Assembly: GCA_905178155.1 (NCBI GenBank)
Contig: CAJINV010000005.1
Span: 5,615,469-5,679,468 of the forward strand
Direction: 5' to 3'
From: Amoebophrya sp. A120
Taxonomy: Eukaryota > Protista > Dinoflagellata
DNA: 64,000 bases
The translations under genes and the position numbers were made by a program. Of the stretch, positions 2,892-64,000 are shown piece by piece. The notes beneath the pieces were generated by a model. The model searched no databases. It saw only the letters and a list, made by a program, of their open reading frames with translations, and was not told where the DNA came from. How positions within the stretch are numbered: the first letter of the stretch is position 1; each line of letters starts with the position of its first letter.

Positions 2892-3040
2892 TATGAATTG
2901 CAAAAGTATCGTACTCGTATAAATGCATTACAAATTTTCTCCGCATGAGAAATAAAATTTGTCATGCTGATTTATCTTAAGAAAAATATTTGTAATGCAG
3001 GAATTGCATTTGTACGAGTGCGATACTTTTGCACAGGATA
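2892..3040. mobile_element. Introner family A
   Basis: TAT..tgcaaaagtatcg TIR; direct repeat GAGTG/GAGTG. Confidence 0.9.
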
Positions 3041-3347
3041 GAGTGCTACTTTTGATGCGAGTATCAAGCAAGATTTTTCTACTTATTTTCGGTTGGACAC
3101 GGACAAGCTGTTGGGCGACCTTGTGATCATAGATCCGCCGAGCAGCTGCCACAAGAGCAGCGTCGTGAGCCTTACCCTGGTTGTCAAACCCGCACGCAGG
3201 CTCCCGCTGGCGGAGCTGTTAACGTCGCTGACGAAAAATGTTGTGGACGCGGATGTCCTGGTAGGCCGCGGGCTACTTGGGAAGTGGCTTGCCATGGTAG
3301 GAGAGGACGAGGTGGCGGGCAACGGTCCGCGATTTCGCGACTTCCCA

Positions 3348-3591
3348 TATGGCGTTCTCAAACGTTACATTCTCAACTGTTGACGCGATTTGTCATGCAA
3401 AAACGCTATCACTCTTCACACAATCAACAAGCCTTCTTCGCATGACAACTTCTCGACGCGCTGAATAGCAAGAGAATCCGCCCGAAATCTGTCATGCAAA
3501 AGGCGCAGTCTTCCTCGCTCCTTTCACTTTTTCGATTTTTGCATCACAAATTCGTGGAGCGCTTGAGAATGTGATAATTGAGAAGGCCATA
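3348..3591. mobile_element. Introner family J
   Basis: tatggcgttctcaa / ttgagaaggccata; TCCCA/TCCCA. Confidence 0.85.
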
Positions 3592-3669
3592 TCCCACACC
3601 CACTGGAAAGGGTTGGATCAGGTGGCCTGGTCGCGCTTTTGGAGGAGTTTCTGGATAGCCAGCTGGCCT

Positions 3670-3925
3670 TATCAAATGCAAATGTGTCTGGGTCTGGAAA
3701 CTTGTGGCGCTAGTTTGTGAATGGTGGGCGTGCTGCAAAAATACGCAGCCACGCATGACAGGTTTCTGCGCTCCTTTGTGTTTCGCTTTCCGCATGGCAA
3801 ACTGCACTTTTGCATGACAGGCAAGAGGATATTCTCCTGCTCACGCTTTACAGATTCAACTGTCATGTGATACAAGCATGACAGACCTTGCATCCCTCCA
3901 GACCCAGACACATTTGCATTTGATG
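3670..3925. mobile_element. Introner family B
   Basis: tatcaaatgcaaatgtgtctgggtctgga TIR, right end ATG; GGCCT/GGCCT. Confidence 0.9.
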
Positions 3926-3999
3926 GGCCTCGTTTCGTAACGACTTAATCAATCTTCACGGGGGTACATCTTCAACTTCCGGAGACTTCGCGGAGACCT

Positions 4000-4145
4000 T
4001 ATGCACTGCAAAAGTATCGTACTCGTATAAATGCATTACAAATTTTCTCAGCAAGAGAAATGAAATTTGTATATGCAAATTTACCTTAAGAAAAAGATTT
4101 GTAATGCATGACTGCAATACGAGTGCCATACTTTTGCACAGGATA
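4000..4145. mobile_element. Introner family A
   Basis: TIR; GACCT/GACCT. Confidence 0.9.
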
Positions 4146-9630: not shown

Positions 9631-12600
9631 ATGGATCAGCAAAACCGTAAGTTCGAAGACATCCAGAAGATGTTGGTGTGCCGCACCCATCTGGTATCCA
9701 CAGTAAATTTCCCGTACACTCGTACAAATGCTGTCCCTGCATGACAAAACTCGACTCCGGATTATGGTTTAGCATGACAAGTATCAGGCTGCAAATTGGT
9801 AAATTCTGTGATGCATTTTGTACAATGTACGGAAAATTTGTATTGCATAGCTGGGAACACTGAACGTGGACCACCGCATGAAGCGCTACGTCTTCCGCCG
9901 CACCCAGGACGGCATCCACTTTATGAGAGCCTCAGGTTGGAAATCCTCAAAGTGGAAATAATTTGTAATGCAAAAGAACGAATCCAGTTGAAGTGCCATT
10001 TCTAGTCGGCGCATGACAAATTTTCCGGGCACTCAAAGCATGTCTGTCATGCTAGACAGGCAAAGGGGTGCCCTTCTCTCGTGCTAATCAGCAGCCCAAT
10101 TATGAACCCCTAGCAGGACAATAGTCGGTCTCCATTGTGTCCTCTGCAATGCACTCATTTCTGCCTTGCATTTCATGCATCACAAATTATTTCCACTTTG
10201 AGGATTTCCATTCTGAGGCTTTCATACACTTGTTGGACCTGGGAAAAACCTGGGAGAAGGTGATGGTGGCGGCCCGCGTCATCGTCGCCATCGAGAACCC
10301 CGAGGACATCATGGTCATCTCCCAGCGTCCCTATGGTATAGGATTTTATTTGGGTTTTCTTTTTACTCGTAATAATACGCATTACAGGATTATTTTTCGT
10401 AGCAGAAATCGCATGACAAGTTCGAAGAGTTTAAAGAGAAAATGAATTTGTGATGCTAAACAAGGCAGGAAAAAGGACATTTGTAATGCCAAATCGCATA
10501 TAATAATACACAGGTTCCCGCGCGGTGTTGAAGTTCTCCCAGCACGTTGGCTCCGTTGCCCACCCCGGTCGCTGGACCCCGGGTACGCTGACGAACTACA
10601 TCACCAAAAAGTTCGCCGAGCCGCGTCTCCTGATCGTCACCGATCCGCGCACCGATTCCCAGGCTGTCTTGGAGGCTTCCTATGCCAACATCCCGGTATT
10701 TTGATGCTATAGAGATTTTTTTTTGGATTGGTTTGTTTTTCTTTCTCTGTGTAAGAAGAAGTATTGCATGACAGAGCGAGTGGCCGCTGAGTAGGGAAGA
10801 ATCTGTGCAAGAAGAGAAATTTAGAAGTCGGTGTAGTTGTATGCTGGTGCATTTGTATTGCTCGACATCAGCGTGAGGAGGCGGACAATAGCAGCGCACG
10901 CGTTATGATGATTGGATCACTTGGGACACCTTCTGAACCCCCGGGTCTACTTGTTGAATCCGGGGGTAATGTGAAAACTATTGTGACCGCCCCAGTCTGA
11001 TCTTGTGACGCTGATAAATTCTCGCGATCACAATTTCATGCGCGTGCTGTCATCTGCAGATTTAGATAATTCCTACTGCAAATACTCTTGTTTCAAAGCA
11101 TGTCTCCTTATCATGATGATTGGATCACTTGGGACACCTTCTGAACTAAGCTTTCGCAAGCAAGAAGTTTAGTAATGTGAACAACTACGTGACCGCCCCA
11201 GTCTGACTCTTCTAAAAGCACAATCTTTATTCCAACTCGATGTCAAAAAAGACGTGCTCGGTTATTTCATCATGACAAGCGTGGGCAGCAGCTCTCCTCT
11301 GTCTTGGTCTTTGAGTTTGACTTCTCTTGCCGCGTGACTACAACAGTAGTACCTAGGCGATCGCTACAACTTCCCGGTATGTCATACAGAGCTGCACTTC
11401 TGTGTCCAACACACAATATCATCTTTCCGTCAAAAACAACAAAACGGAAACACTGACTCTCCGCTGGAAAGACACGCTTGTGACACTGACTCTCCGCTGG
11501 AAGTCATCCTGACTGAACAGGAAAGACTGCTGAAACTGGAACAGGCCAGTTGGAACATGTCCGGAACAGGCCAGTCAGCGAACAGGCCAGTCAGCGAACA
11601 GGCCAGTCAGCGAACAGGAAAGACTGCTCATCCTGACTGAACAGGAAAGACTGTCTGTTCCAGTTCTCATCATGAAGTCACAGGAAAGACACTCTGTGTG
11701 GCGGAAGTCACAGTGACTGACTCACAGCCATCATCTGAAAAAGTGTTAACGTTAACGGTTTCCACAGATGGCAGTCATGCATTACAAGTCTTGCCTTCCA
11801 TGCATGCTACGCAATACAAATTTTATATCATCTTTCCGTCAAAAAAAAACAACAGGTCATCGCGCTGTGTGACACGGACTCCCCGCTGGAGCACATCGAC
11901 CTGGCCATTCCGTGCAACAACAAGGGTAAGGAATCCATCGCCCTCATCTTCTACCTCCTCGCCCGTGAGGTCTTGTACCTGCGTCGCGGCGCCCTGAACC
12001 GTGGACAGGAGTTATGAATTGCAAGAATGTCTGAGTCTGGAAGATTGCAACTTGTGATGCTGTCTCTGGATAATTCCAAAAAAGTCTGTATTGCATGACC
12101 AGCAAAAGGAGTCCAGTTTGTGCTACGCGGAGAGGGCATTTCTCATGCGGAATACGCACCAGAAAGCCATCTCAAAATCTGTGATGCTAGGCCATGCATT
12201 ACAGACGTAACGTGTCATGCAGAATATGCATGGGAAACCTGTCACTCTTCCAGACCCAGACATATTTGCACTTGATAGGAGTGGGACGTTATGGTGGACT
12301 CCTTCTTCTGGCGTGACCCGGATGAGATTGCCGAGAAGGAAGAGGAGACGACCAAGTGGTATAGCTAGAATTGCATTACAAATCTTTTTCGTAAGGTAGA
12401 TCCGCATTACAAATTTCATAGCCGTTTGTAATCTCGGTTTTGAGTCCTGTTAGCATTCAATCTGTCATATGTCCTGGTGCACGAGTTCTTCACACTGGTC
12501 TGAGTTGTCTTGTTTGTTTCTGTCAAGAACAAATGCGTGAAGATCAAGATAAACAGTCGTCAACATGATCAAAACTACCCAAACTACAGGCAAGAGGAGA

Positions 12601-13978: not shown

Positions 13979-16900
13979 ATGTCCTCTTCCACAGCAACTG
14001 CGAACGGTAAGGCGAAAGCCGCTGCTGCTGCCGTACCCGCTTTACCGAAAGCAACCACTAGTATGAAACGGGAAAAGGGCAAGGAATCGCCGGGAGCAAA
14101 ACGCACGAAGAAGGACGGTGGAAATAGCGGGTCTCCCGCTGTCCACTCGCCCTCCCGCAGGAACAGTAAGAACAGCAGCGCCCCCGCAGTGGAACAAGAG
14201 GACCCGCAGCGTGGTGCGCAGGCGTTGCCAGGAGCAGCGGCTGCTGCAAAAGGAACCACTACATCGGGTTCGTTTACCCTTCCACCAGCAGCAGCAGATC
14301 CTGCGAAGCAAGCTGCCAACCCTGCTTCAGGAGCGAATATAGCGCCACCTACAGTTGTGGCAGGAGCACCGTTTACTTCTCTGTCCGCGAATTGTACTCC
14401 CGGAAAAGGAGCTGCTTCGTTAGTTACAACAACTTCCACGACGAATCACCACGCCCCCACTTCCACTTCTACACCCGCAGCTGCGATCAACACTGCCGCG
14501 TCCGTATCCCTTCCCACCCATGCGACCACGTTTGTAAAACCAGTAAAACCGCTTTCCCTCTCCGCAAAGGAATTTGACGCGGTGAAGCGCGCGCAGGAAC
14601 AGCTACGGAAACTGGAAGACCAGACGGTATCGGACCAAGTGATTATTCAAAACAGCTTTGAGGATTTGAAACAGCCGTTTTTTCAGGAACGGAATATCCT
14701 GTGCAAAAGTATCGTACTCATATTGCAGTCATGCATTACAAATTTTTATTGTTTAGTCAAATCCGCATTACAATTTACAAATTTTATTTCTCATGCTGAG
14801 GAAATTTGTAATGCATTTATACGAGTCCGATACTTTTGCAGTTCATACGGAATCAATTATTGCAATTCTTCCCGAAATTCTGGGGCAACGTCGTGTTGCG
14901 CATCTTCGATCCGCAATGGAGAGGGCTGGCTGCGACGGCGAAGAGTAGAGAGGGAAATACTGTTCCACTGTCGGCTCGGAGCGGCAGCGGCGGGCCGAGT
15001 AGAAGGGGGCAGAGCAATAGTAAGAGTTCCAACGCGAGTGGTAAGAGACCGGGAGCAGTGGGTGCAGCACCTCCTCCTGCACGGGCGCCTGCGGGAAGTA
15101 GGACCACTACCAGTGCTGGTGGAGCGGCCACGCCAAACACGACGGGAAGTACCACAGCCACTGCTGGTAACACGCTTTCTCGCAGTTTAGGCACTATGGT
15201 GGGACCAGGTGGAGGGACGAATACAACCGGAAGTGCTGCAGCTCCGGGGCGTAGCATGTTTAGCTTTGCTTTCTCCAATTTGTTTGGCTTCACGATCATG
15301 ACAGAGGACGCGAACAACAACATCGCGTCTGGTGGGTCGAACATGAATGCGAATACGGCTAGTACTGGGTCCGGAACTGGGGACCACGGAGGAGCAACTA
15401 CAACTACCGCAGCATCCACCTCTTCCCATGCGGGCACAGTTGGTGGATCCTCCAACACAAGAACTACCCCAAGTGCGGTTGCAGCAGCAGTTTCCACGAC
15501 AGCGGCCGCACCACGGCCGGCTGATTTCGACGAATTTTTCCCGCCGATTATCCCGGATGAAGACGACAATTTTATCATGGAAGATGACATTCTAGGCGAG
15601 CATCAATCTGCACCTGCTGCGACTAGATCTACTTCCTTTGTCGGAGAAAATCAAAACGAACTCTCCGAACTCCTAGACGTTCACCTGCAGGACAATTTAG
15701 ACGCCTTCGGCTCGCACCGATTTTCATTTGCGTTTTCGTCGCAGTTGCTGCGGCGGGCGGGGACGGCGAAAAGTAGTAGTGGAGGTGGTGGAGCTCCACA
15801 TATTGGTGTAGTCTCCTCGTCAACATCTGCCAGTGCTGGTGCCACGGGAAACAAGCGGTCGCCAAGTAAAGAGCGCGGCGCGGGGACGGATGCGGTTGTA
15901 AATGGAGCAAAAAGTAGTGCTGCTTCGGCTGCAGCTTCGAAAACAGCAGGAGGGAAGCCGACCTCTTCGTCATCCGGTATAATTTCAAACTGTTTCTTTC
16001 GCGTGACTAAACGTGTGAACTGCGCCCAGGGCGTGGTAAAAGTGGAGGTGAAAAAGATTGCGCTGCCGGGAAGTGGTAATTCTGGAGGAGGACATCAAAC
16101 TGATCCGACTGGCAAGAAGAAAAACAAAGCCAGTAGTACCGCTGGAAATTCAACTCGCGCGGCGACCACAAGTGGTACTAGCGCAACATCTAGTACGACA
16201 GCTGTTCCACCCTTGACCAGCAGCAATGCCCCCCCGACGACTTCAGGAGCTTTGCATCAAAATAACCAAACCACAAGAAACCAGCAACCCGCCATTCCCA
16301 CCCCCGGGATTTTTACGTATCCTGAGGAAAAACGTACCCATACCAGAGTTGTAATGCAGATTTGCAAAGACAGGAAGACTTGTAATGCGCATTCGCATGA
16401 GAGCCATTTTCAGTCGTGTTTTGGAATTTGTGATGCTGTGAACAGGATGAGCAGATGGGTTTCTGATGCAGCTGGCCTTGCGAACCTGCACTACACTACG
16501 GACTGCAACTTGTGATGCGTGACTCACAAAGCTCCTAGGTTTGTGTTGCAAAATCCCCATCCTGACTCTGGTGCGGGTACGTTTTTACTCAGGATATCAC
16601 GTCCTTGGTCAACGCCATTCGCACAACGTCCAACTCGACCAACGCGACACCAACGGGCACGCCGAACCCCAGCCCGGGCAGAAACCGACCTGCTGGTGGT
16701 GCAACTTCCGTTGCGAGCAGAATGGCACGGATGGTCAGAGGGGTCGGAGGTACAAATGGGCAGCAGAATAATTCTTCCTCTCCGCACGCGCACATTCTGA
16801 CCGCGGCGGAATTGAGTAGTCCCACCTTGATACAACAATTTTTCACGAGTAGATTGAAGGAGAGGTTGGAAAAGGCGCAGGAGAAGGCGGAGATGGGTCG

Positions 16901-23812: not shown

Positions 23813-24245
23813 CCCCCAAGACCGACTTGCCACGCACTTCATCGGTAATGGCGCCACCGCTCGGGATTCCTCCACGGAGGCAATGGAGAAATTCAACCAC
23901 GGCCAGCTCTACGACTGCGCCATCGACTGCTGTGGCGTGGCAAGTGCGATTAGCTGCGCGATCCACAGCACAAAACCGGGAAAAAGGGTGGTTTTGGTCG
24001 GGATGGGCGGGAACATGTCGAACATACCCTTGATCGACGCAAGTATCCGGGAGGTGGATCTGGTGGGCGTTTTCCGGTACCGCTACACCTACGCGACGTG
24101 CATTCAAATGCTCGCGGAGAAAAAAATCGACGTGTCAAAGCTGATCACGCACAAGTTTCCGTTCAGTCAGGAGGGCGTGGAAAACGCGATGGAGCATTGT
24201 AGGACGGGGAAGGACGGGTGTGTGAAGGCGATGTTGGAGTTGTGA
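23813..24245 (+). CDS. Duplicated, intact, intron-free C-terminal exon of the sorbitol dehydrogenase (partial gene or alternative exon)
   Basis: [58 protein letters not shown]; mostly synonymous differences from copy 1. Confidence 0.7.
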
Positions 24246-49700: not shown

Positions 49701-52700
49701 TGGATAGCGAGTGTGAAGAAAATCTTAGCCGGGTACAGCAACGAGATTGTGGAAATCCAGCTGGTATGCATTGCAAAGGTATCGCACTCGTAGTAATTGC
49801 AGTCATGCATTACAAATCTTTTTCTTAAGGTAAATCAGCACTACAAATTTCTTTTCTCATGCTGAGGAAATTTGTAATGCATTTAGACGAATGCGATACT
49901 TCTGCACTGCATATCTGTCGCAGATAAAGCTGAGGAAACAGAAGTTGAAACGGATATTACCCGAATTGAGGTTCGAAGCCGGTTGCGCCGAACGGGGGAA
50001 AGCGGTGTATTGCGAAGCGGAGGTGAATATCAAGTGCAAAAATGTCTCGGTCTGGAAGATTGCCTGGTTTGTCGTGCATATTTTGCACAACCCATGATGC
50101 CTGTAATGAATGACCTAGCATCAGAGATTTTTAAAAGGGCCTTCTGGTTCTGATGCGTATTCCGCGTGAGAAATGCGGCCCTGTCCGCGTAGCACGAATG
50201 GAACTCCTCTTGCTGGTCATGCAATACAGATTTTTTACCTTGTTCCAAAGACAGCATCACAAGTTACAACCTTCCAGACCCAGACATATTTGCATTCCAT
50301 AGTGAACGACTTCGTGCAGTTTTCCTCGAGCCAAAATTTCTCAGGTACGACTACAGGAGGCTCTGGAACGCCCCGAGCTGCAGCAGCTGCGAATAGTACA
50401 GGAAATAGAAATCCGGGCGACATAGCGAACACAAGAATGTACTACCAGCAACACCACAGGGAAGCGGTGATTCAAGTTTGCGAAAAGATCCCGACTCTAT
50501 CACAGGAAAAAGTGTTATACGTTAACGGTTTTCACAGATTCTTGCAGTCATGCATCACAAATGTAGTTCAATATGCATGCTATGCATGACAAATTCTGAC
50601 ACGTCTTGTGATGCATTTCTGCGTCACAAATTCCGTTAACGTTAACACTTTTTCTTGTGATAGACTCTTCCCCCCATGCAGACCTGGCACAACCAGAAGG
50701 GGAGGCTGACCGCAAATCGGCCGGAGACGGTGGAGATCTCGAATCAGGTAGACAGAATCAAACACCAGATGAAAACTATCGTGCCGACCATTCACGCGGA
50801 CCTGTTCACGTTGTCGCAGTTAGTGACGTTGCCGTTCATGGAAGCAGAGGACAGGAGGAAGTTGGAGTTCGACGTTTTGGTTTTGCCCAACGGGGCGATT
50901 TGCTTCAAGTGCGTTTCTATCCACGATCCGGCGGACGATAGTGAAATAGATGGCGGAGAGGTCGAGGACGACGTTGATCAGGAAAGAACGGACTCGCTCT
51001 CGTTCCCGTCCAAAGCCGACCTGGCGAATTGCGAAGTGGAGGGTCCGGACGCGAGTCTGATCACAGCTTTTACGTTATCACAAGCAAAAGTGTTAAGGTT
51101 GAGGGTTTTCACAGATTGGAGCCATGCATCACAAATTTAGCTTAGTATGCATGTTAAGCATGACAAACTTGGACGCGTTTTGGTTATGCGTTGCTGCGTC
51201 ACAGATTCCGTTAATGTTACCACTTTTTCCCGTGATATACGCAGCAGGAGCTGAGGTTGAGCGGGAACGAATCCGCTGCCGCAGCGATTCTTGCGGGTTC
51301 AACATCTCCGCCGGCGCTGAAGAGACAACGCAAGGACAGCGACGACATTGCTCTTGCTGGGCAGCAAGATGAAAGAACCTCGAGCAGCGCCAGCGGCGGT
51401 GGAAGTTGTGCGATCGAAGAGGACCATCTGCATTCCCTAGCTGGTGCAAATAAAACATCAACTTCCAGCACGACGCTCCATAACACAGTCTCCCCTTCCT
51501 GGGAGCTTTGCCGGTCCCGCCTCATCCAGGCCGGTCGGGGTTCGCAGCTGTGCGCTTTCGGGCAACGGAAGACGAAAGAGGAGGCAAGTATACACTATTA
51601 CGAGTTCGCGTTGAATACCCATTACATCCTGCTCGCAAAGCCCATCGAAGCGTGTTTCAAAGTCCAGAATTTACAGCACAAGCTCGACTTTGGCAAGCAG
51701 CAACCGATCAGCTTGAAGTGTATGCGGTACAAGCCGCCAAAGGTCGGGAATGCAACTAGCGCGCACCCGGAGCCGAAGTTGTATCGGAAGCAATTGCTGC
51801 AAATTTGGGGGGAAGCAATGTGGATATCACAGGAAAAAGTGTTAACGTTAACGGAATTTGTGATGCAGTGACGCATCAGAAAAGGTGCGCAAATTTGTAT
51901 TGCATAGCATGCATAGAAGGCAAAACTTGTAACGCATGACTGCCATTTGTGAAAACCGTTAACGTTAACACTTTTTTGTTTGATAGTGGATGGAGGAAAA
52001 TCACAGCCACTTGGTTTATTTTATCGACGATGGGAAAGTCATACCGAGGACAACTTCTGGCGGTAGTAGCAATAAACCTGCATCACCCGACGACCATCTC
52101 CACCCGGATTTCTATCAAATGTAAAAATGTCTGGGTCTGGAAGGTTGGAACTTGTGATGCTAACTTTGGACTCTAAAAAGATTTGTATTGCATGACCAGC
52201 AATAGGAGCCCAGTTTGTGCTACGCAGGGAGGGCATTTGTCATGCGGGATAGGCATCAGGAAGACCTCTACAAATATGTGATGCCAGACCATGCATTACA
52301 GACATCATGGCTCATGGAAAATATGCATGACAAAATCTCGCAATCTTCCAGACCCAGACATTTTTACGTTTGATAATTTCAAGCAGTTGACAAAAGAACG
52401 GATGATAACCATCGGGAAAAATTACAATTGGAGCCGGTGCCGAGGGTTCGAATTTGTGGACAAACTATTCTCCTGGATTCATTCAGGCATGATCACTGGG
52501 CGTTGCCAGTGGCGGACGCGGTTTAAACTCTTCTGCAGTTCTACGAGGACAGATCAGCTATTCCCTGAAAATTTTTAACCACCCCCAGCCGGTCATTTTC
52601 TGCATGGCAGGCACTGAATTTACTACATGTTTTGCATGACAAATTGGAAGATTATGGGGATGGTTAATGTTTCAGGGAATATCAGCCGATTGAGACGGAT

Positions 52701-55700
52701 CTGTGCGACATGCTGGTCCTGCGCGGTTTAAAATACGATGAGCAGAAGCCAATGACTCGAGCACCAGTGAGCTTGAACTATTTCGGCGGGTTCTGTGATT
52801 TGAAGAAGAACTACAAAAACGTGGGTAGTAGTACAACAGCCTCCTCTTCTATCGTACAAAAAAAGTGTTTCACTGTAAGGATCTTACAGGTTTTGCATCA
52901 CAAGTTTGTTCTACATGACCGAGAAAATTTGCCATGCGAGGTTCCTAAAGGGAAAACACAGCGAAAAATCCACAGTCTTGCATGTGTAGCAAGACAAACG
53001 CTTGCGAGATACACTTTCTGCATTACAAGTTTACAGTGAAACAGTTTTTTCTGGGGATATCTTCATCTTCTGGTCAACGACTTTCCACCACCCCGACTTC
53101 CGCTGCGGCTGCTATGGAGTTCTCAAACGTTACACTCTCAACTGTTACATGCATTTGTCATGCAAAGTTGCCAACAGCCTCCACTTGATGAAGGTGCTTT
53201 AGCATGACAAATTTTCGAAGGGCTAAGCAGCATGGTAATCTGTGGCAAAAAATCTGTGATGCGAAATATGCTGCAACGTTGCCACTTTTACTGTTGCTGT
53301 TCTTGCATTATGTAACGTTTGAGAACGCTATAGGTGCTATGTGGCAGAGGACCCCGAGTCTCGGCAGTCAGCACCCGGGGGGATTGCTGCCGAACGAGAC
53401 AATGTATGAAATGCAAATAGGTCTGGGTCTGGAAGAATGCGACATTTGTCATGCTAGTCTGGAATGACTCTGCACTCTGTATTGCGTGGCCACCAAGCGG
53501 CCCGCTTGCCTTTCATGCGAATAAAGCGCAGTTTCTCATGCGAAATACGCATCACAGAAGCACGAAAAGAGTTGTCATGCTTGGCGGCGCAGTACAGAGC
53601 ACTCTATTGTTCACGGAGTTGCATCACAAGTTTCCAGACCGCCAGACATTTTTGCGATTGAGACAATGCAGCTGCAGTTTGACACGTTAGTCAAGGAAGT
53701 ACTGGACGAGGTAGAAACCATATCGCAAGAAAAAACTGTTTCGCTGTAAATTTGTAATGCAGAAACTGTATCTGAGAAGTGTTTGTCTTGCTATACATGC
53801 AAGACACTAGATTTTTAGCTGTGTTTTCCCCTAGGAATCTCGCATGGAAAAGTTTCTCTGTGATGTAGAACAAACTTGTTTTGCAAAATAACTTACAGTG
53901 AAACACTTTTTTCGTACGATAAACCACGTCGTCAAAGGCCCCCGCCATTGTAACCGGGAAGAAGATGTCCTCGCCATCGAAACGCCCGCCGAGCGACAAC
54001 AAGAAGGGCACGACTAGCAAAGAAGATGAACCAGAAACGGCGATGAAAGTAGACGAGACCTTGGATGAAAAGCAGAAAGTCCTCGCTTTGTTCAAACAAA
54101 AACAGCAGAAAATCAAATCTCTCCCGAAGATCTACTCCACCATCAGCCCTTTCTCCCCGTATTTCCAGCTTCTCCAAGTGCCCTACGGGTGGCATTTGCG
54201 GTACTCCCGCTCCAGCAATCGGTCCTACTACGAGCACGCAACCTTCAAGCAAGAGAAAATCCAGAATTGGCAAAAGCGTGAGAAGCCGCAACTATTGGCA
54301 AAACTGGAAGAAGAGAAGAAGAAGCTCACTGAGGATGTCGCCTCGAAGAGGCAGCAAGCAAGAGTCGAGCACTACAAGAATGCGTTAAAAGCGCAGCATC
54401 CGGACAAGATGCGATTTCACTCTTGGACGGAATTGTACAAAACACCCATTGGGTGGCAAGCGAGAATTCCTTCTGACGTGTGGAAAAACGAAATGAGTTT
54501 CAAGAAGATGCCAGATTCGGTGGAGTTTGGTAGGTTGCAGAAACTGGAAAACCAGAAGAAACCGGACCAGAGGAAACTACTCGATCCGGAGGACACGATA
54601 TGCATCGCAAAAGTTTATCGTATTAGTGGATTAATTGCATTACAAATTAGCTTAGCATGACTGATGTAATTTGTCATGCTGTTTTAGCTGAGAAATGCTG
54701 AACTGCAATTAGTACACGAGTGCGATACTTTTGCAGTGGATACACGAAGTCGCGGTACGACGTGTACTTTGAGAACTCGTTTTTGGACAAGAGGTTCACC
54801 ACCGGCGGCAGTACAGATATCACAAGAAAAAGTGTTAACGTTAACGGAATTTGTGATGCAGTGATGCATCAGAAAAGGTGCGCAAATTTGTATTGCATAG
54901 CATGCATGGAAGGCAAAACTTGTAATGCATGACTGCCAACTGTGGAAAGCCTAATGTTAACATTTTTTTTGTTTGATAACAGGCAGTGGCGCTTCCTCCT
55001 CCGCGGCGAAAACGACGAATAGCACGGTTATTCCGACTGACATGCAGGAGTTGCTGAGAGCGACGGACACCTTTGACAACCGGAACTTTTTCAGCTTGAA
55101 AAACTCGACGATCAAACAGAACACTTCGCTATCCTGTGTGAGAAAAACGTCCCAACCCCGAAGTTGTCATGCAGATTTGCGATTACAGGAACATTTGTCG
55201 TGCGCATCTCCATGAAATGCATTTCAGATCGTGTTCTAAAATTTGTAATGCTGTAAACAGGATGACTGAATTGCTTTGTCATGCAGCTTCCCTTGCTGAC
55301 CACACTACGCTGCAGATGGAAAGAACTTGTCATGCGCAACTCCCAAAACTTGGAGACTTGTCTAGCAGACTTGACTATGGGGTCCTCGTGGGGACGTTTT
55401 TACTCAGGACATTCCCTCTCCTCCGTGGACCTTCTCGCCGTGAAACTGCAAAAAGACGAGATTTCCGAAGAGGCCGTGGCGAATTATCTGAAACAGGAGG
55501 CAAATCGGTTTTACACGGCGAACGTGACGGACTGGAATTTGCCGTTTAAATCCGCAGACCAGTCGACCAGGGATTGGTTGGTCAGTCAAAACGGGATTTT
55601 TCTAGTGAGAAAGTTCGGCCACGAGAGGAGTATCAAGGATTTTACCAGTCCGGAGTTGGCGAAAGTGGATATGGACGACTGGAGACACGAAAAACGGGAA

Positions 55701-58451
55701 CAACCAGAGACTCTCGCTATCAAAGTGAAAAAAAAACCCTCCCCCTATCGAAACGAAGTTTCTGATGCTGGATTTGCGAACACAAATCAGATTTGTCTTG
55801 CTGGAGAGGACTACAGACGCATAGTAATCCGGAGCAGAGCGGCTTTGGCATAGGCACTTAGCATGAAGAACGTCCGCACTGCAGGCCCAACAGCATGACA
55901 AAACGCCTGCAAAATGCGGCGGAGACTGTGGAGCTGCCTTCTTGCAAGACAGACGCGATCTGTGGCCACAAATCAGCAACGCAAATTGTCGAAGACGTGA
56001 CCACGCGTCAATATGTGTATGGGGAGGGGGGATTTTTCCGTGTGATACTCGTGGACGACGCGGCTGTTGAGGACGTGTTTGCTGCGCTGGATGGGAATAA
56101 CGCCGGGTATTTTCATGGGGCAGGACGAACAATGTATGGCGAGGAAGTAGACCAAGGATGGTCACTGGAGCGGGAGCTTTTTGAACAGCAGCAGGAGATA
56201 AATAACGAAAATGGAGGCGGACCTCCTCCGCAGTTGTTCTACAACGAATCTGTACTGCAATTTCAGCAGCAAGTGCAACAGCAAATTCAGGAGTACCAGT
56301 TGCAATCTCCGAATTTTGATGTCAAAGAGGACGAGGACCAGCAGCAGCATCGTGATTTCTCACAACCGCAGGCGCACCAGCAACAAGCGCATCAACTGGA
56401 GGGCGCGCATCAGCATCTTCAGGAGCAATACGGGTGGTGGAGCTCGCCGGAGGAACAGCAGCGTGTCGGGTGGAATAATATTACCGCTACATCGCCCTGT
56501 TCTTGTGAAGGAAACCAAAACACTTTGTTCAATGACAGTCTGCGTCTGTCCCGGTTGCAGAGGAGCTCGGAGGACTTGTTATCCACCGGGAAAAAACACC
56601 CATCCCCATCCAATTTGTCATGCACAACATGTGTATCAGTTCAACAGGGCCCGCGGTTCAACAATGTACCTACCAGTTCAATACCGCCCCGGGGCCTAAA
56701 TATCCTAGAACAAGCAGGCCATTTGATATGCTCGGCGCCAAAAACATATGCAGGTGGAGGAAGGAGTAGGGGGGGCGTTCCTGACCCAAAGGTACGCTCC
56801 TGATCTCAGTGGTACTTAGTCGACCCGGGGGGCCAGGTATTACCTGACCCCCGGTTCGGGTCTGTGCCTGCAATGCTGCAGCGAAGTCGTTTTAGATGGT
56901 GCTGCAGCACAGCTGCGCGCACCTTGATGGGCGCCAAAGGCCCCAAGTCTGTCGCTACAGAAAACGGTAGCCATGACTGCGATCGGCCCTAGTGTTCGAC
57001 CGCTTTCTGTTTGAAACCAGCGCCGCGCACACAGCTTCGGTCTTCGTGCGCCCATTGATCGGAAGCAGCGTCCCTAAATCCTACGGCCGGCAGCCGTGCC
57101 ACCGTAAACAATAGTCGCGCAGCGCTTCGCGCCTCACAAACCAAAATCGCGCGCGCGCGCGCCAAAATACAGGACCTTTTGGGGCTTGTTGCGTGCACAT
57201 TCTTTTTGCGACATATGGCGCCCGCAAGATATGCTCTGTAGCTCATCGGGATTCTTTTCTCCCGTTGCCCGCTCTTTTTTTCGGGGTTTGGCACGTGCAC
57301 TACGTATGGTTCTCTTCTTTTTCGTATGCCCGGAACCTTCACGAACTAAGTAGTTCGTGAACTGGGGTACACTCTCGAACCGATTCACATGCATAAAATC
57401 CGCTAGTTGTCATGCAAAAAATGGATGGGGATGGGTGTAGAAGTCTTTTCCTAGATACTTATCTGAGGAAGAACATTTAGAAGACCGCCTGAACGACTTA
57501 CTCCCGTACAGCTTCTACGGAGGGGATAGGATGAAGGACAACGGTACAACTACTAGGGGCGAACAGCAGGAGACGAACCAGCGAGCTTCAAAAATATTGC
57601 CAGACGAGCCGCGACATCATCAACATCATGACGCGGTGGAGGAACCTGTTCCGTTTAATAGCGAAGGATCCTTTTTGCTGCCTCTGGAAGTAGGAGAGAC
57701 GCAGAGAATCAACGCGGAGACTACACCAGGAGGCACCGCTCGTCGTGCCAGCGAGGATCATCCTCTCCTAGAAGAGCACCAACAGGACGAGGACGAGGAC
57801 GAGTATGACGAAGCGGCGGAGGCCCGGGAGCTCGCTAAGGAATTGGAAAACGGTCTCGGCGCTCTGGTGTTGGAATCGCCAGAATTGCTGGTCTCGTTGG
57901 CAGAGAGCTTGGAGAAGGAGGAGCAGGAAAAAATGAAAAAGGAGAAGGAGGAGGCTGAAGCTCAAGCTGCAAAAGTAGTAGAGGACAAAGAAAATATTAT
58001 CCCCACAACTAGTACAACTGGTGGCCGTGCACCAGCTGCACAAACGAGAAGTTGTCCAGGGGCGCGGCGTCCTAGTTCTCGCGATAAAAAAGCAGCAGAA
58101 GACGACTACGATTTTGAAGCAGAATTGCAGTCTCCCACGGATGTGACCGCGAAGAACCAGCAGGATACGACGGTAAATAACACTTCTGCAGGACGAGCGG
58201 CGTCAAGCGCCAAGGATCAACAGCAGAGTAAATATCTCAAACTGCCACTGGAGGAGCCAGACGAAGCGGGTGATGATGATGTCGAAGATGATCACGATTT
58301 GGATGACCACTGGGATCTTCTTCGCGGGGAGGACGATGACGATCATTGGGATGGATTGAACTCGCCCGGGGCCGCTGGGGATAATTCAGAGGCTCCTGAG
58401 CACAAGAACATCAATAAGCGAAAACTACTACACAAGCGAAAGCTTGTATGA
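40752..58451 (+). CDS. Giant hypothetical protein (~3300 aa), 33 exons separated only by introners; KGKG-rich N-terminus and a WW-like motif
   Basis: Hand-traced continuous frame across 32 introners; VPYGWHLRYSRSSNRSYYEH (~54178-54237) resembles a WW domain. Confidence 0.8.
42307..42489. mobile_element. Introner family C (inverted orientation)
   Basis: TIR; CATGA/CATGG. Confidence 0.88.
42558..42709. mobile_element. Introner family A
   Basis: TIR; CAGCA/TAGCA. Confidence 0.88.
43093..43354. mobile_element. Introner family B
   Basis: TIR; CCCGC/CCCAC. Confidence 0.9.
43420..43571. mobile_element. Introner family A
   Basis: TIR; CGTCT/CGTCT. Confidence 0.9.
43688..43991. mobile_element. Introner family G
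   Basis: TIR; CCGGA/CCGGA. Confidence 0.88.
44027..44308. mobile_element. Introner family B
   Basis: TIR; GAAGG/GAAAG. Confidence 0.88.
44393..44572. mobile_element. Introner family C (diverged)
   Basis: TIR; GCCGG/TCTGA. Confidence 0.8.
44757..45033. mobile_element. Introner family B
   Basis: TIR; GTTTT/ATTTT. Confidence 0.88.
45952..46259. mobile_element. Introner family F
   Basis: tatggaagcgtcaggttt / aaacctgacgcttccata; AACAC/AACAC. Confidence 0.93.
46295..46445. mobile_element. Introner family C
   Basis: TIR; CAGCA/TAGCA. Confidence 0.92.
46591..46757. mobile_element. Introner family A
   Basis: TIR; GTTAT/GCTAT. Confidence 0.88.
47072..47323. mobile_element. Introner family B
   Basis: TIR; GCAGG/GCAGG. 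Confidence 0.92.
47355..47629. mobile_element. Introner family B
   Basis: TIR; AAGGT/AAGGT. Confidence 0.9.
48041..48321. mobile_element. Introner family B
   Basis: TIR, right end ATG; CCGGA/CCAGA. Confidence 0.88.
49317..49468. mobile_element. Introner family A
   Basis: TIR; AATCC/AATCC. Confidence 0.92.
49532..49706. mobile_element. Introner family C (inverted orientation)
   Basis: TIR; GCGAG/GCGAG. Confidence 0.88.
49765..49913. mobile_element. Introner family A
   Basis: TIR; GCTGG/TCTGT. Confidence 0.88.
50028..50301. mobile_element. Introner family B
   Basis: TIR; GTGAA/GTGAA. Confidence 0.9.
50498..50662. mobile_element. Introner family D
   Basis: tatcacaggaaaaagtgtta TIR; GACTC/GACTC. 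Confidence 0.92.
51076..51237. mobile_element. Introner family D
   Basis: TIR; TACGT/TACGC. Confidence 0.9.
51825..51985. mobile_element. Introner family D
   Basis: TIR; GTGGA/GTGGA. Confidence 0.92.
52113..52375. mobile_element. Introner family B
   Basis: TIR; ATTTC/ATTTC. Confidence 0.92.
52559..52681. mobile_element. Introner family E-like
   Basis: tattccctgaaa / tttcagggaata; TCAGC/TCAGC. Confidence 0.88.
52850..53059. mobile_element. Introner family I
   Basis: TIR; TCTTC/TCTTC. Confidence 0.88.
53113..53332. mobile_element. Introner family J
   Basis: tatggagttctcaaacgttaca / tgtaacgtttgagaacgctata; GCTGC/GGTGC. Confidence 0.88.
53405..53663. mobile_element. Introner family B
   Basis: TIR, right end AGA; CAATG/CAATG. 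Confidence 0.85.
53721..53921. mobile_element. Introner family I
   Basis: TIR; AACCA/AACCA. Confidence 0.9.
54599..54742. mobile_element. Introner family A
   Basis: TIR; CACGA/CACGA. Confidence 0.88.
54818..54978. mobile_element. Introner family D
   Basis: TIR; ACAGA/ACAGG. Confidence 0.9.
55130..55411. mobile_element. Introner family G
   Basis: TIR, right end ACA; TTCGC/TTCCC. Confidence 0.85.
55718..56047. mobile_element. Introner (singleton family in this window)
   Basis: tatcaaagtgaaaaaaaaaccctcccc / ggggagggggatttttccgtgtgata; CTCGC/CTCGT. Confidence 0.85.
56580..57457. mobile_element. Introner family E carrying a nested insertion
   Basis: cacccatccccatcc / ggatggggatgggtg TIR core; CTTGT/CTTAT. 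Confidence 0.88.
56632..57387. mobile_element. 756-bp non-autonomous TG..CA element nested in an introner
   Basis: Termini TGTATCAGTTC / GAACCGATTCA (9 of 11 inverted match), CATG duplicated on both sides; empty family E copies read aaaaCATGcataa. Confidence 0.75.
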
Positions 58452-59293: not shown

Positions 59294-62200
59294 ATGCGCG
59301 GTTGTGACGATCCAGCATCCGTCGCTGCTGGTCTCAACGTCGTTTCTTTCACCTACAATTGCGGTGGCGTGGAGCCCCCGCAGGAGGAAAATTTAAAGCA
59401 GAAGCTACAGGAAGAGATTCGGGAAAATCTGCTCCAGCAGAGGATTGATTGCAGTCGCAACAGTGATGGAAATGATCTTGTTGATTTTGCTGGTGCGCCT
59501 GCGGCCCATTCTGCTTATATTACCGTCGAACAACAAGCCGCAAATCCATCCACAACTGGAGGCACAACGAGGAGCGCTGGTGACCACAGTGTGTGCTTTA
59601 CCCCGGACATCGTTGTGATCAATCTGCAAGAATGTTGCCCGCTAGCCCTGGCCGCTTTAGGCAACAACGCTTCGGACTCCTACGGAAACAAATGGCGAGA
59701 CGTTTTCATTGAGGCTCTGGGCTACGGGCCATTAGACCGATTGACCTGCAGGTTTTACACCCAGTTGCACGGCGGGAAGGGAGCTTCAGGAACCGACGTT
59801 GCACCTGCGCAAGAGCTCGATATAGAGGAAAAATGCGAAAATTCCGCCGGTGATCAACATGTTGTATCGAGTTGTTCTAGGGCTCATGTCGCGTCCTCGT
59901 CCTCGTCTGCGAGCGCCGTTGCGGCTGCTAGTGACGTAGCTTGTTCCAAAAAGTGCTCCTCAAAATCGTCAGTAAGCACAGCGGCCTCGTCTTCTTCTAG
60001 TTTTGTTTCTACGGCAAGCAGCACTGGTGATTGGAAACAACTCGCAGCTTCCGCTTCGAGCTCTTCCAGGCTAGAAAGGGAAAGACAAATATGCTCATCG
60101 CCGGATAGCAATTGCAGTTCAAATTCGAGCGCCTCGACATCATCGAGTAGCGCTTCATCCTCTTCGACATCTTCCCCGTGTTGGACTACGACGGAGCAAA
60201 TCAGCCCCGCACCTAGAGCCAGTCCACCCGACGAGAGAAGGGATGAAATAAGCCCGAAGGATCCACCAGTGTCGCCGTCGCCCGACGCATTAGTGAACGA
60301 GAAAGGCCGCCGCGATCTGTTCTTCCCACCGGCCTTATCAACATCGGGAGGGGAAGATGTAAATAAACACGCACCACAAATCGCATCAAACGGAGCGGAA
60401 GACGAGACAGTTACGACAAACAGTTGTGGTTCATCTAGCAGCTGCTTCAGCGCTTCAGCGTTATCTTCAACCGCAGTGACGCCAGGGAATTCCAGTTCGA
60501 ATTCCTCTTGTTCTAGCTTTCTCCCGCCCGGCGGCGCAGGTATGGTAGTGTCAGGATCGAAATCGACAAAGTTGAAACATCAATTTGCGATGCATAAAAT
60601 GCAATCCACAGAATGCCTGTCTTGCAGAGTAGGCAAGGTAGGCAGATTGTAAGCCTGATGAGGGGTAGAACTAGAAACTGAGCTGCTAAAGTAGCATGAC
60701 AAAAGGGGTCTTCCTTACCCAAACAGCATGACAAACTGGATTTCGGTTCTACCCAAGTTTGTCATGCACCACTTAGAAACTGGGTTACAACTGGCATCCA
60801 TTTTATGCATGACAAACCATTAACGACTTCAATCCTGGCACTTCCATAGCAGGCAGTCGCTTTTTACAAGTTCCTCAAGCCGGGGGTGCGAAGGTGCGCA
60901 GTGCGGGAGGTCGTGCAGTTGTTGGGCAGCTGACCGCCGAGTCTTCCTCTGCGAGGACAGGCAGCATGACAACAGGAGGTGGAGGCTTTGGGTCCCGCCG
61001 GGCAACCGCGATCACTACGAATAAGATGCAGAAAAATTATAACCGCCGGCCGACACAGCTACCGGAAGAGCTGCAGGGCGGGTCGTTTGGAAGTACTTCT
61101 AGCTGCGCTCAGACTCAGACGCCTGCTGCAGAGGGCAAACAGGACGAAATAATAATAAAAGAAGTTCTTGCAAAAGTTGGTAAAAAATCCCGACGACGGC
61201 GCGGCACAGAGAGCAGTAGCACTGGGGGCTCCTTCATCGACCTTGCTGACTACGAAGACGCAGCCTGTCGCTCTCCCTCGTCACACAGTTGCCAGCAGAA
61301 CTTCTCATGCGAAACGCCGAAAGTAGTAAAGGTGAACAAGCAAGGTGGTAAAGCAGGCCCCAGCTGCTCAGGCGGTAGAATCGACGACGACCACTTTTCA
61401 ACATCCGAAACAACATCCGACTATCCAGGAAAATGAAACACCCATCCACATCCGATTTGTCATGCGAAACACGTATCAAAAAAAGAAAATTTCTGAAGAT
61501 AATGCTGTGTTTGTCATGCAAAAAATCGATGCTGGGGTTGGATTTTTTTTCCGTCAATACCAACAGTAGCCTCGCTGCGGATGTGGAGCACAGTCCAAGG
61601 TGCACCGTTTTGTATCACAGGTAAAAGTGTTAACGTTAAACGCTTTTCACCGATAATTGCAGTCATGCATCACAAATGTAGCCCAATGCGCATGTTATGC
61701 ATGACAAATTTTGGCACGTTTAGTGATGCATTGCTGCATCGCAAATTCCGTTAACGTCAAGAACACTTTTTCCTGTGATATTTTGAGCGCGACGGCAAGA
61801 AATTCCATAAGCAAGGCCATCAGACGGGAGGAGAGGAAGAATAAATCATCACTCCTGCTGCATCAAAAGACCACTAGCACACGGACAAAATTCAGTGGTT
61901 CGTCATCATCCACGACCGCCGCCCACACCGGGGAATGTTATCACTCCTTGGCGTTCGCCCCTATGTCGCAGCAGGTGACGACGCCTCCGAAACTAGGCTC
62001 CATCTCGTCCAAAACCGGACTTTTGCAGCCGCCCGCGCTGCTGAAAGTAGGAGCAGCTCATCCGGGAGGAGGTGCAGGCAATGCAAGTGCTTCGCCTTCG
62101 CATTCTCCTCTCAAGCACATGATCCACCAGTCACGACGCTGCCTGAGCCCCGGTCGGGTAGGACAGGAAAGTTCTCTGAACACATTGCCAAGCACGTGTA

Positions 62201-64000
62201 GCTATCCTGTGCAGAAGTATCGTACTCGTGGTAATTGCAGATATGCATCACAAATTTTTTTCTCAAGGTAAATCAGCATTACAAATTTCATTTCTCATTC
62301 TCATGCTGAGGAAATTTGTAATGCATTTATACGAGTGCGATACTTTTGCAGTTCATAGCACCACCTTCTCGACGTCCTCTTCCTCCAAAAAACTTGCAAA
62401 AGTCGCTTCCTCCCCTGGGCCGCTGCGGAGTTGTGCGGGCGGCCGGAAAAATTATATACAGCCGAAGACGTCGGGGTCAGCGCACACCAACAGCAGTGGG
62501 ACGACGAGTGTTGCCGGCCGCGGTCCTGGGGCAGCTGTTCTTTCAGCTGATGTGCGGAGCAAACAGAAGAACGTGGCTTTTTCAACAGCAGGAGCGACGG
62601 GCGGAGCACATCATCAAAACGACGCGGCGGTAATACCTTTGCAGGTCTCGTCAGAAGGTGTATTGGATTGCTCACCCAACTACGCTACCAAGGACCCGGA
62701 ACAAGTTCCTCCTCCTGCGCATCAAGCTGATAAAAAGCACATGACCGAACAACAGGAAGAATCAAACAGCAGCCACCAGCCCTTGATAAACAACATGAAC
62801 AAACCCCACTTACGACTGATCAAATCACACCGCATGGTGGGTTTGTTCACCCTCGTTTTCATCAACACGAAAAAAATCCCGACCTCTGCCATCCACTCTT
62901 GCACGAGTTGCCAACATAAATTAGGCTTCTTCAACGGCTTACTGGGGAACAAAGGGGCCATTTGCGTCCGCTTGACGCTGCAGATGCCCGGAGTGGTACG
63001 GACACAAGTATTAAGACCGCTCCGCCTCGCGTTTTTCAGTTTCCATCTCCACGCCGGGGAAGTATCCAGGAAAAAACACCCATCCCCATCCAATTTGTCA
63101 TGCAAAACATGCATAATTTGCAGCGTTTTTCATTTTCATGCAAAAAATGGATGCGGATGGTTTTTTCTTCTCGATAGGATGGCTTGAACGCGTATAAACA
63201 GAGGCTGAACGGCTTGAAAGAGGTGTTCGGGGACAAGAGTTGTATCTCCACTACCCAGGAGGGAGGCGAAGAACACGCCGAAGAGTCGCTGGTGCTCAAC
63301 CGAGCGTCTGTGACGTCAGCGTCGGGCAGGACTGTAGGTAGAAGTTCTGGTGTGGTCCAGCAAGGGGCACCAGGGAGCTCAAACAACGGCGAGGGTACTC
63401 AAACAACTGGCAATCCGTTGTTTGAATACGAGCGGTCATGTGACTATCGCAGGAAAAAGCGTTAACGTTAACGGATGAATTTTTTGTATATGCAAACACG
63501 CATGCCTATGCGTGCCATTGTCATTGCCGGAAAAAATGGAACTTGTATTCGCCATTTTTGCGTAGCATGTAATGTAGTAGAGAAAATGAAAATCATCATG
63601 TCATGTCCTTTAGGCTGAAGACCGTTAATAGCGTTAGCACTTTTCTGTTTGATACTGACTTCGCGTTTTTCAGTGGGGATTTCAATTTCCGCTGTATGCC
63701 GGTTAATCAAGATTATTTGCTGCAGGAGGATCATAATTTTGAAGGAGAAGGACATCTTGAAGGGCACCAGGAGCACGTGCACGCAAGCGGCCCGGGGAGC
63801 GAAATTCACCATGCTAGTAAAAACCTCCACCAGGTAGATCTTCAGGAAGAGGCCCTTTGCGGCTCCGCCGGTAATTTTTGCTGCTCGAACACCAGTAATT
63901 GCTGCTCCGAAAGCACGTTATCAAAGGAGACGGTAAGTGACTTCTGTGCGGTAGGCGGAGCTGGAGGTGGAGCCGCAACGACCTCAAGTTCTATCACAGG
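59294..64000 (+). CDS. Inositol polyphosphate 5-phosphatase (IPPc), 3'-partial, with long Ser-rich insertions; 6 complete introners and one starting at 63992
   Basis: Spliced motifs SFTYNCGG, PDIVVINLQE, SHRMVGLFTLVF, GNKGAICVRL, FFSFHLHAG, DFAFFSGDFNFR. Confidence 0.92.
60541..60848. mobile_element. Introner family F
   Basis: TIR; GCAGG/GCAGG. Confidence 0.9.
61422..61559. mobile_element. Introner family E
   Basis: Diverged TIR; CCGAC/CCAAC. Confidence 0.82.
61613..61780. mobile_element. Introner family D
   Basis: TIR; TTTTG/TTTTG. Confidence 0.9.
62203..62357. mobile_element. Introner family A
   Basis: TIR; GTAGC/GCACC. Confidence 0.88.
63063..63176. mobile_element. Introner family E
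   Basis: TIR; GGAAG/GGATG. Confidence 0.88.
63445..63654. mobile_element. Introner family D-like
   Basis: TIR; GTGAC/CTGAC; removal yields CDFAFFSGDFNFR. Confidence 0.88.

Follow-up and report, generated by a model that had tools for sequence, protein, structure and literature searches.

A nine-base word common to the introner families of Amoebophrya sp. A120, a candidate docking site for a shared transposase

The word and the elements that carry it

The 64-kb stretch of Amoebophrya sp. A120 DNA that we analysed (64,000 nucleotides, called the window from here on) is strewn with introners, small mobile elements that double as introns. They fall into many families, and a single nine-base word, GCATBACAA (B is C, G or T), recurs inside nearly all of them. 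This word is our subject. Two questions make it worth the attention: by what means introner copies in their tens of thousands are mobilised in A120, where no transposase is known, and how introns that are mostly non-GT-AG are recognised without U1.

Counting both strands, the window holds 144 exact matches to the word, the first at 2076 and the last at 63095, where 100 dinucleotide shuffles lead one to expect 1.96 (standard deviation 1.45, maximum 6). The first-pass annotation had seen several copies of the word in each of its families, and the counts bear the observation out. When 9-mers are ranked with the two strands collapsed, GCATGACAA comes out on top (71 occurrences), with GCATCACAA (37) and GCATTACAA (36) also within the five commonest. 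The centre base is G in 71 copies, C in 37 and T in 36; the centre-A form, GCATAACAA, occurs once. Independent related contigs give the same picture, with G 232, C 112, T 104 and A in only 4 of 452 copies. One-base variants at the other eight positions are rare in the window, and the word is equally sharp in both orientations. Its flanks are weakly T-rich on the left and clearly A/G-T-T on the right, which makes the extended form roughly TTTGCATBACAAATT.

The elements that carry the word are 115–310 bp long, with TAT...ATA ends, terminal inverted repeats (TIRs) of about 30 nt and a 5-bp target-site duplication (TSD). They are, in short, hairpin-forming small transposons. A strict element finder, which imposes TAT at the ends, recovered 30 elements in the window and 309 in the related contigs. 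Position 4 of the terminus is C or G in 597 of the 618 ends from the related contigs (hence TATS, S being C or G), positions 11–14 are A in 489–573 of them, and the window's 30 strict elements look the same. The duplication has no target preference, with 256 different 5-mers among 309 elements. Relative to plus-strand transcripts, six of seven families have inserted in both orientations.

That these elements are removed from RNA is seen in contigs of four runs (X3, X4, X7 and X8), which skip them exactly. No run is on record as RNA; we took these four as such, and their contigs behave as transcripts. Together they yield 33 RNA-verified introns, made up of 30 joints listed of 57 and three deduced from contig pieces. 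The direction of transcription is known for the window alone, and how efficient splicing is cannot be measured from contigs. What is skipped is as long as the element and a single copy of its duplication together, which leaves the borders ambiguous by 5–6 nt. Across the 33 joints the ambiguity is 5 or 6 nt in 17, 3–4 in eight, 7–9 in three and 0–2 in five; it fits the 5-bp target duplication, and short direct repeats overlap the exon/intron borders. A GT..AG register was flagged at three of the 33 joints, the remaining borders being non-GT-AG. The three introns readable in this way (10335–10512, 10695–11854 and 12358–12588) also hold the word or element fragments, and the GT at 10335 and at 12358 comes from a G that precedes the element's TAT (GGTAT...).

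Matches to the word are concentrated in what is spliced out. The 33 introns (8,454 nt) contain 65 of them, or 7.7 per kb. In the 34 exon pieces covered by RNA, 11,365 nt in all, there are three, which is 0.26 per kb (binomial p 9e-21). Intron sequence simulated with a first-order Markov model yielded 0.5 matches, with a maximum of 4 in 200. The word had been described as rare in exons, and these counts agree. At least one exact copy is present in 31 of the 33 introns, and the most widely shared 8-, 9- and 10-mers among the introns are all part of the word. Two introns are spliced without an exact copy: 19056–19214, which has two one-mismatch copies, and 21545–21718. For the window as a whole, self-similar repeats make up 16,840 bp (26%) and contain 127 of the 144 matches. 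The 62 annotated elements or introns (Table 1) contain 133. The three exon copies (19995–20003, 20943–20951 and 13250–13258) are isolated, with no TIR near; at 13255 one contig runs on into unplaced sequence, and the copy at 13250 may sit at an unlisted joint.

How widely is the word shared? BLAST sorted the 62 elements of the window into 16 clusters (nine multi-copy and seven single), and 15 of the 16 have an exact copy, as had been claimed for families whose TIRs differ. A second sample came from scanning metagenomes with a triple-copy pattern of the word. This returned at least 155 stretches, all on JACKZZ01... contigs (153 loci, 542 kb), which share the window's families at 75–94% identity without overlapping the window itself. 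The sample was drawn by the word, and we excluded the 83 of its 309 elements that contain the search pattern. Of the 226 unselected elements that were kept, 211 (93%) carry the word. By cluster, it is present in 18 of 21 overall and in all 12 that are multi-copy. In local alignments between eight family consensus sequences, the word lies inside 36 of the 40 best inter-family matches, and three of the remaining four contain near-copies. Apart from the TATS terminus and the run of A at positions 11–14, it is essentially the sole similarity between families. It is fair, therefore, to call the families otherwise unrelated, the shared terminus signature excepted.

Conservation and geometry

The word is better conserved than the internal sequence around it. 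Within the window, mismatch to the family consensus is 7.7% in the word (101 of 1314), 13.5% in the TIRs and 23.8% in other internal columns. A measure that avoids consensus bias, the cross-validated exact retention in one copy of a 9-mer taken from another, gives 27% for the word, 26% for the TIRs and 3.6% for other internal sequence.

Could the word nonetheless be a functionless relic, either descended from a single ancestral element or spread among families through recombination? Common descent is plausible, given that the TATS terminus, the A-run at positions 11–14 and the 5-bp TSD are common to all families, and the word is indeed decaying in old copies such as 3667–3927. We nevertheless consider a relic highly improbable. 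Every family with at least eight copies keeps the word 3-fold better than the internal columns next to it, one of the four centre bases is excluded in two independent samples, and fixed distances to the terminus are kept despite unrelated spacers.

Variation can be divided into what copies share and what is private to one of them. We did this for eight families with at least eight copies each, using the independent contigs and leaving out ascertained copies. Shared variants per cell come to 0.073 in the word, 0.089 in the TIRs and 0.240 in other internal columns. Private singletons are nearly level at 0.0211, 0.0199 and 0.0225, with no significant difference between the word and other internal columns (Fisher p 0.57). 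The ratio of word to internal singletons is 0.94 overall in the related contigs (bootstrap 0.56–1.35); taken singly, the largest three alignments (N 42, 68 and 30) give 0.92, 1.6 and 1.27. Such a pattern is expected of a word that, in common with the TIR, is under selection as long as its lineage transposes and is relaxed after landing.

The position of the word is also constrained. The first copy usually sits directly against the TIR's inner end. An exact copy starts 29–46 nt from the terminus at 56 of 92 ends in the window and at 243 of 452 in the independent set, where an analysis of spacing relative to termini, proposed at first pass, finds preferred starts at 31–33 and 39–42 nt. Several families contribute to each mode, and the gap between the two is about one helical turn. 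Neighbouring copies keep their own distances: 31–33 bp for tandem pairs (22 pairs, whose spacers include at least seven unrelated sequences), 33–34 for convergent and 47–50 for divergent ones. The convergent and divergent pairs noticed at first pass are thus there, and tandem pairs too. Subterminal copies stand in direct orientation in clusters 2, 4, 6, 8 and 12, and are inverted, extending the TIR, in clusters 0, 5 and 7. When the two ends of an element are classed by spacer, 126 of 309 elements are long/short, 91 long/long, 11 short/short and 81 something else. A rule like the 12/23 rule, pairing a short with a long spacer in each element, was tried and rejected, since short/short and long/long elements exist.

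What may read the word

A common trans-acting reader is strongly implied by a word that is sequence-specific, selected and cross-family. Of the possible readers we favour a transposase, and we are evenly balanced on the full proposition that the word is the subterminal double-stranded DNA binding site of one shared, putative enzyme of this kind. The TIR-like behaviour of the word and a geometry tied to the terminus make a subterminal site the most likely choice; our confidence stops at even because the enzyme was not found in the DNA searched and Farhat et al. report none in A120. The proposal is also favoured by the marks of cut-and-paste TIR elements in the carriers (TAT..ATA ends, a 5-bp TSD and no target preference), by the use of the word in either orientation and by the filing of A120 families as "TIR DNA" in a published dataset. 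The DNA-binding domain of the mobilising enzyme would dock on the words, at a distance of some three or four helical turns from where cleavage occurs, and docking on a shared word would let a single enzyme mobilise families whose TIRs otherwise differ. Selection would act through the lineages that keep transposing, not on each inserted copy. Families described as "hundreds" would, the data suggest, form one mobilisation group.

Several observations weigh against this proposal. The orientation of the word to the terminus is family-specific (42 ends with GCAT inward, 36 with TTGT inward), which is looser than rigid end recognition. Pfam searches of 38 of the window's 104 open reading frames (ORFs) of at least 130 aa found no transposase or integrase domain, nor did those of 89 of the 97 ORFs of at least 220 aa from the related contigs; only host-type domains appeared. 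No element of 0.95–9.5 kb turned up in the window or the 153 loci that combined TAT/ATA ends with a perfect 5-bp TSD and a TIR of at least 21/26. In its text, the paper of Farhat et al. (2021, PMC7789003) reports no transposase in A120 and argues against transposase-mediated mobilisation, whereas the data here point to a common sequence-specific reader. The singletons do not give a clean picture either. They are depleted in the word in small alignments (N of 13 or fewer; ratios 0.26–0.58), the word/internal ratio is 0.31 in the small families of the window, and it is 0.60 in nearest-neighbour pairs at up to 10% divergence. Small samples can turn subfamily variants into singletons, which would explain the trend, but the test of relaxation after insertion is a weak one and may leave room for ongoing constraint on inserted copies. 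Finally, TIRs may also serve excision at the RNA level, and TIR-like behaviour consequently does not separate a DNA function from an RNA one.

In an alternative, the word acts on pre-mRNA, or co-transcriptionally, as a recognition element for the machinery that removes these mostly non-GT-AG introns, perhaps a dedicated RNA-binding protein or a small RNA that would mark the hairpin intron. The contrast between introns and exons speaks for it (31 of 33 introns with the word, three matches in 11,365 nt of exon), the three GT..AG-readable introns carry it as well, and the depletion of singletons in small window families and nearest-neighbour pairs leaves room for constraint on inserted copies. 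Organisms of this type are, moreover, reported to lack U1 and to have more than 60% non-canonical introns (Farhat 2021, PMC7789003). Against this stands the strand. Read in the sense direction, the RNA-verified introns contain GCAUNACAA 29 times and UUGUNAUGC 36 times; nine introns have the first reading only, 12 the second only, ten both and two neither. A single-orientation signal in single-stranded RNA cannot be a general requirement when neither sense reading is universal, and splicing also proceeds in the two introns that have no exact copy. A test for selection of the TIR stems as RNA was not significant: on the transcribed strand of 45 elements, G:U mismatches do not significantly exceed A:C ones (103 vs 82, p 0.14). 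The three largest families show no shortage of private substitutions in the word. On balance, we regard a signal read on the RNA as unlikely.

Folding was another of the checks proposed at first pass. In minimum-free-energy folds of the RNA (31 of the 33 introns, the two longest being left out), 76% of word nucleotides are paired against 61% of other internal ones, an excess that would suit recognition on RNA; only 27% of word nucleotides pair with another exact copy. The latter figure bears on a different idea, that nothing reads the word itself and that its paired copies build internal hairpins, in single-stranded DNA or RNA, stabilising the long stem for excision or transposition. The elements are certainly strongly structured (median z about −5.9, with eight shuffles each), convergent pairs at 33–34 nt form local hairpins in several families, and the inverted copies of clusters 0, 5 and 7 lengthen the TIR. 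Yet structure needs complementarity, not the same 9-mer, and the word is in 36 of 40 inter-family similarities. Five clusters carry their subterminal copies in direct orientation, 21 of the 31 word-bearing introns hold one sense reading only, and centre bases match alike in tandem (15 of 25) and convergent pairs (11 of 16). A pure hairpin builder is disfavoured because unrelated families repeat one identical word and exclude the same base at its centre, and we give the idea little credence.

The first-pass annotation had offered all three functional readings, and none is proven. The transposase site gains from the terminus-fixed distance and TIR-like conservation, the splicing-factor site on single-stranded RNA loses by the lack of a universal reading, and the hairpin builder loses by the direct copies. 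A bolder scheme would merge two of them: one sequence-specific machine, a transposase-derived "intron excisase", would read the word on nearly all mobile introns, both spreading them and marking their precise removal in place of U1-type recognition. This is a long shot. Were it true, the word would be an address tag explaining the recognition of tens of thousands of non-GT-AG introns. In practical terms, a word of 9–12 bases carried by some 93–95% of elements is a bait for the reader protein and a handle for finding autonomous elements.

Known systems and further features of the window

TIR transposons are known to carry repeated motifs in their subterminal regions. The transposase-binding motifs of this type include the hexamers of Ac/Ds, the 12-bp TNPA sites of En/Spm and the 10-bp sites inside the 31-bp TIRs of the P element. 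The word resembles them in being a short motif with several copies, in either orientation, immediately within the TIRs of TSD-flanked elements; it is likewise conserved above the surrounding internal sequence and kept in short non-autonomous derivatives. It differs in being common to families with unrelated TIR bodies and in its strict 31–33 bp period. It differs further in having no known autonomous element or binding protein to go with it, and its carriers double as introns.

The signal ends of Transib and RAG consist of a terminal heptamer (CAC), a spacer of 12 or 23 bp and a nonamer, with a 5-bp TSD. So described, they share with the introners the length of the TSD, a conserved terminus accompanied by a 9-mer, and two spacer classes about one helical turn apart. 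Unlike them, the introners end in TATS rather than CAC and obey no one-short-one-long rule (short/short in 11 of 309); their 9-mer comes in both orientations and in arrays, and no RAG-like ORF was found among the ORFs searched. Euglenid non-conventional introns and the internal eliminated sequences of ciliates are transposon-derived inserts with short repeats and pairing ends, removed precisely and under no GT-AG rule. The similarity lies in precise removal of something derived from a transposon; the lineages are different, and the ciliate sequences are removed from DNA while ours are missing from RNA contigs. We know of no shared internal word in either.

We did not find described a single word common to nearly all introner families of this organism, with a strict 31–33 bp period. 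Searches of the open literature by motif strings and by Amoebophrya introner, intron and transposase topics gave no description of an internal introner motif among the matches listed. As set out in the text of Farhat et al. (2021, PMC7789003), the inverted repeat of an A120 introner element begins with TAT, after which come seven bases of lower conservation and at least three A; direct repeats lie at the borders, and splice sites are mostly non-canonical. The elements of the window agree in their TAT-N7-A inverted repeats, border direct repeats, non-GT-AG borders, hairpins of about 150–310 nt and many families. The text and supplement legends of that paper give terminal inverted-repeat and direct-repeat features only, with no shared internal word. 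Gozashti et al. (2025, PMC12130899) put A120 introner families in the class "TIR DNA" and give their superfamily as "Unknown" (21 of 58 rows). Those families resemble our clusters in length (about 106, 149, 160, 252–260 and 305 bp), in TIR structure and in a TSD of 4–5. The main text of that paper contains no occurrence of "subterminal", "internal motif" or "binding site"; it does draw attention to family 38, whose TIR-flanked elements with integrase-like ORFs could be autonomous forms.

Table 1. Introners, related elements and RNA-verified introns of the window, with position and strand of each exact motif copy
Feature	Position	Strand	Motif copies and remarks
Introner, cluster 1 (TIR TGCAAAAGTATCG)	2892..3040	.	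2925+, 2959-, 2990-; TAT..ATA, TSD GAGTG, TIR 24/26
Introner-like element, cluster 7	3348..3590	.	3390-, 3440+, 3541+
Old cluster 0 copy	3667..3927	.	degenerate copies only, e.g. gcatgacag
Introner, cluster 1	4000..4145	.	4033+, 4099-; TSD GACCT
RNA-verified intron, cluster 3	9691..9850	+	9739+, 9772+; joint 9690-9851 in 4 runs
RNA-verified intron, cluster 5	9917..10226	+	9963-, 10011+, 10177+; joint, TSD CACTT
RNA-verified intron, GT..AG-readable, single	10335..10512	+	10411+, 10448-, 10481-
Long GT..AG intron with cluster 2 fragment (11737-11824)	10695..11854	+	11779+
RNA-verified intron, cluster 0 (TIR TGTCTGGGTCTGGAA)	12007..12276	+	12052-
RNA-verified GT..AG intron with half an element	12358..12588	+	12373+, 12404+
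RNA-verified intron, cluster 1 (reverse orientation)	14689..14846	+	14733+, 14765+, 14806-; contig pieces 13864-14688/14847-16314, TSD CGGAA
RNA-verified intron, cluster 8	16315..16598	+	16349-, 16380-, 16428-, 16510-; contig pieces
RNA-verified intron, cluster 3	19056..19214	+	no exact copy, two 1-mismatch copies
RNA-verified intron, cluster 4 (TIR CACCCATCCCCATCC)	19273..19392	+	19310-
RNA-verified intron, single	19467..19694	+	19559+, 19655+
RNA-verified intron, cluster 1	19753..19908	+	19820-, 19851-
RNA-verified intron, cluster 5	20057..20374	+	20209+, 20241+, 20274-, 20322+
RNA-verified intron, single	20417..20622	+	20453-
RNA-verified intron, TAT..ATA ends	21545..21718	+	no motif
RNA-verified intron, cluster 2	22057..22211	+	22138-, 22170-
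RNA-verified intron, cluster 4	22256..22380	+	22293-, 22329-
Introner, cluster 0	25649..25902	.	25688-; TSD ACCTC
Introner, cluster 1	26754..26903	.	26788+, 26822-, 26853-; TSD TTGAA
Introner, cluster 0	29337..29592	.	29376-, 29543+; TSD GTTGA
Introner, cluster 0	38136..38398	.	38177-, 38351+; TSD TTCCA
Introner, cluster 6	38680..38900	.	38717-, 38847-; TSD CTCTT
Introner, cluster 3	42307..42489	.	42344+, 42399-, 42430-
Element, cluster 1	42490..42710	.	42603+, 42650-, 42667-
Introner, cluster 0	43093..43354	.	43134-, 43307+
Element, cluster 1	43417..43573	.	43456+, 43490-, 43521-
Introner, cluster 0	44027..44308	.	44254+
Element, cluster 3	44430..44573	.	44447+, 44478+, 44521-
Element, cluster 0	44744..45037	.	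44798-
Introner, cluster 5	45952..46259	.	46042+, 46075-, 46107-; TSD AACAC
Introner, cluster 3	46295..46445	.	46337+, 46369+, 46403-
Introner, cluster 1	46591..46757	.	46625+, 46668-
Introner, cluster 0	47072..47323	.	47112-, 47196-, 47235-, 47283+; TSD GCAGG
Element, cluster 0	47346..47635	.	47494+, 47582+
Element, cluster 0	48038..48321	.	48080-, 48170-, 48271+
Introner, cluster 1	49317..49468	.	49350+, 49384-; TSD AATCC, exon piece ends 49310
Element, cluster 3	49532..49700	.	49572+, 49609-, 49640-
RNA-verified intron, cluster 1	49761..49914	+	49807+, 49872-; joint
RNA-verified intron, cluster 0	50023..50301	+	50254+; joint, TSD GTGAA
RNA-verified intron, cluster 2 (TIR GTGTTAACGTTAACGG)	50493..50662	+	50552+, 50584+, 50606-
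RNA-verified intron, cluster 2	51071..51237	+	51126+, 51158+; contig pieces 50663-51070/51238-51674
RNA-verified intron, cluster 2	51820..51985	+	51858-
RNA-verified intron, cluster 0	52108..52375	+	52152-, 52237-, 52325+
RNA-verified intron, single	52553..52680	+	52634+
RNA-verified intron, cluster 6	52845..53059	+	52895+, 53020+
RNA-verified intron, cluster 7	53110..53334	+	53155-, 53202+
RNA-verified intron, cluster 0	53396..53659	+	53446-, 53572-, 53621+
RNA-verified intron, cluster 6	53715..53920	+	53752-
RNA-verified intron, cluster 1	54593..54741	+	54637+, 54671-
RNA-verified intron, cluster 2	54813..54978	+	54851-, 54920-
RNA-verified intron, cluster 8	55129..55415	+	55164-, 55243-, 55276-, 55327-
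RNA-verified intron, single	55713..56047	+	55893+
RNA-verified 883-nt intron, cluster 4 ends	56579..57461	+	56615-, 57407-
Element, cluster 5	60541..60849	.	60694+, 60726+, 60759-, 60807+
Element, cluster 4	61422..61554	.	61457-, 61511-
Element, cluster 2	61613..61781	.	61667+, 61699+
Element, cluster 1	62193..62358	.	62245+, 62276+, 62316-
Introner, cluster 4	63063..63176	.	63095-

A few features of the window deserve separate mention. The 883-nt intron at 56579–57461 has the ends of cluster 4, whose members are usually about 115 bp, enclosing some 760 bp of sequence unrelated to them; a nested insertion is one possibility, a longer relative another. In the stretch 46670–47336, contig word depth over a cluster 0 element rises to 526 (X3) and 120 (X4), against at most 21 in neighbouring bins. 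Reads of many genomic copies, collapsed onto one contig, could account for this, as could abundant unspliced or excised element RNA. Some RNA contigs fuse different element copies that lie kilobases apart, with a few foreign letters between them. They are most simply assembly chimeras through repeated introners, a reading that implies unspliced RNA with elements in these runs.

Rfam gave no match in the window at gathering thresholds. Among the ORFs, the one at 62180–63187 has an endonuclease/exonuclease/phosphatase domain (Exo_endo_phos2, E 1e-9) within a gene broken by several introners, and resembles a host gene more than a retroelement. The stretches 21688–21987 and 23785–24084 form a 300-bp direct duplication with 91% identity. 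Both lie within ORFs with an ADH_zinc_N domain (E 1e-10 and 9e-10), which suggests a tandemly duplicated dehydrogenase gene. The first 2,000 nucleotides of the window (1–2000) are a GC-rich block of tandem repeats (66% GC), with a copy of the word at its edge (2076, minus strand). The block comprises an 11-bp array of the CACACCCCNGA type at about 910–1240 and, at 1–650 and 1287–1821, units of 96–107 bp with the GC-rich palindrome GCGCGGGGACTCGGTCCCCGCG.

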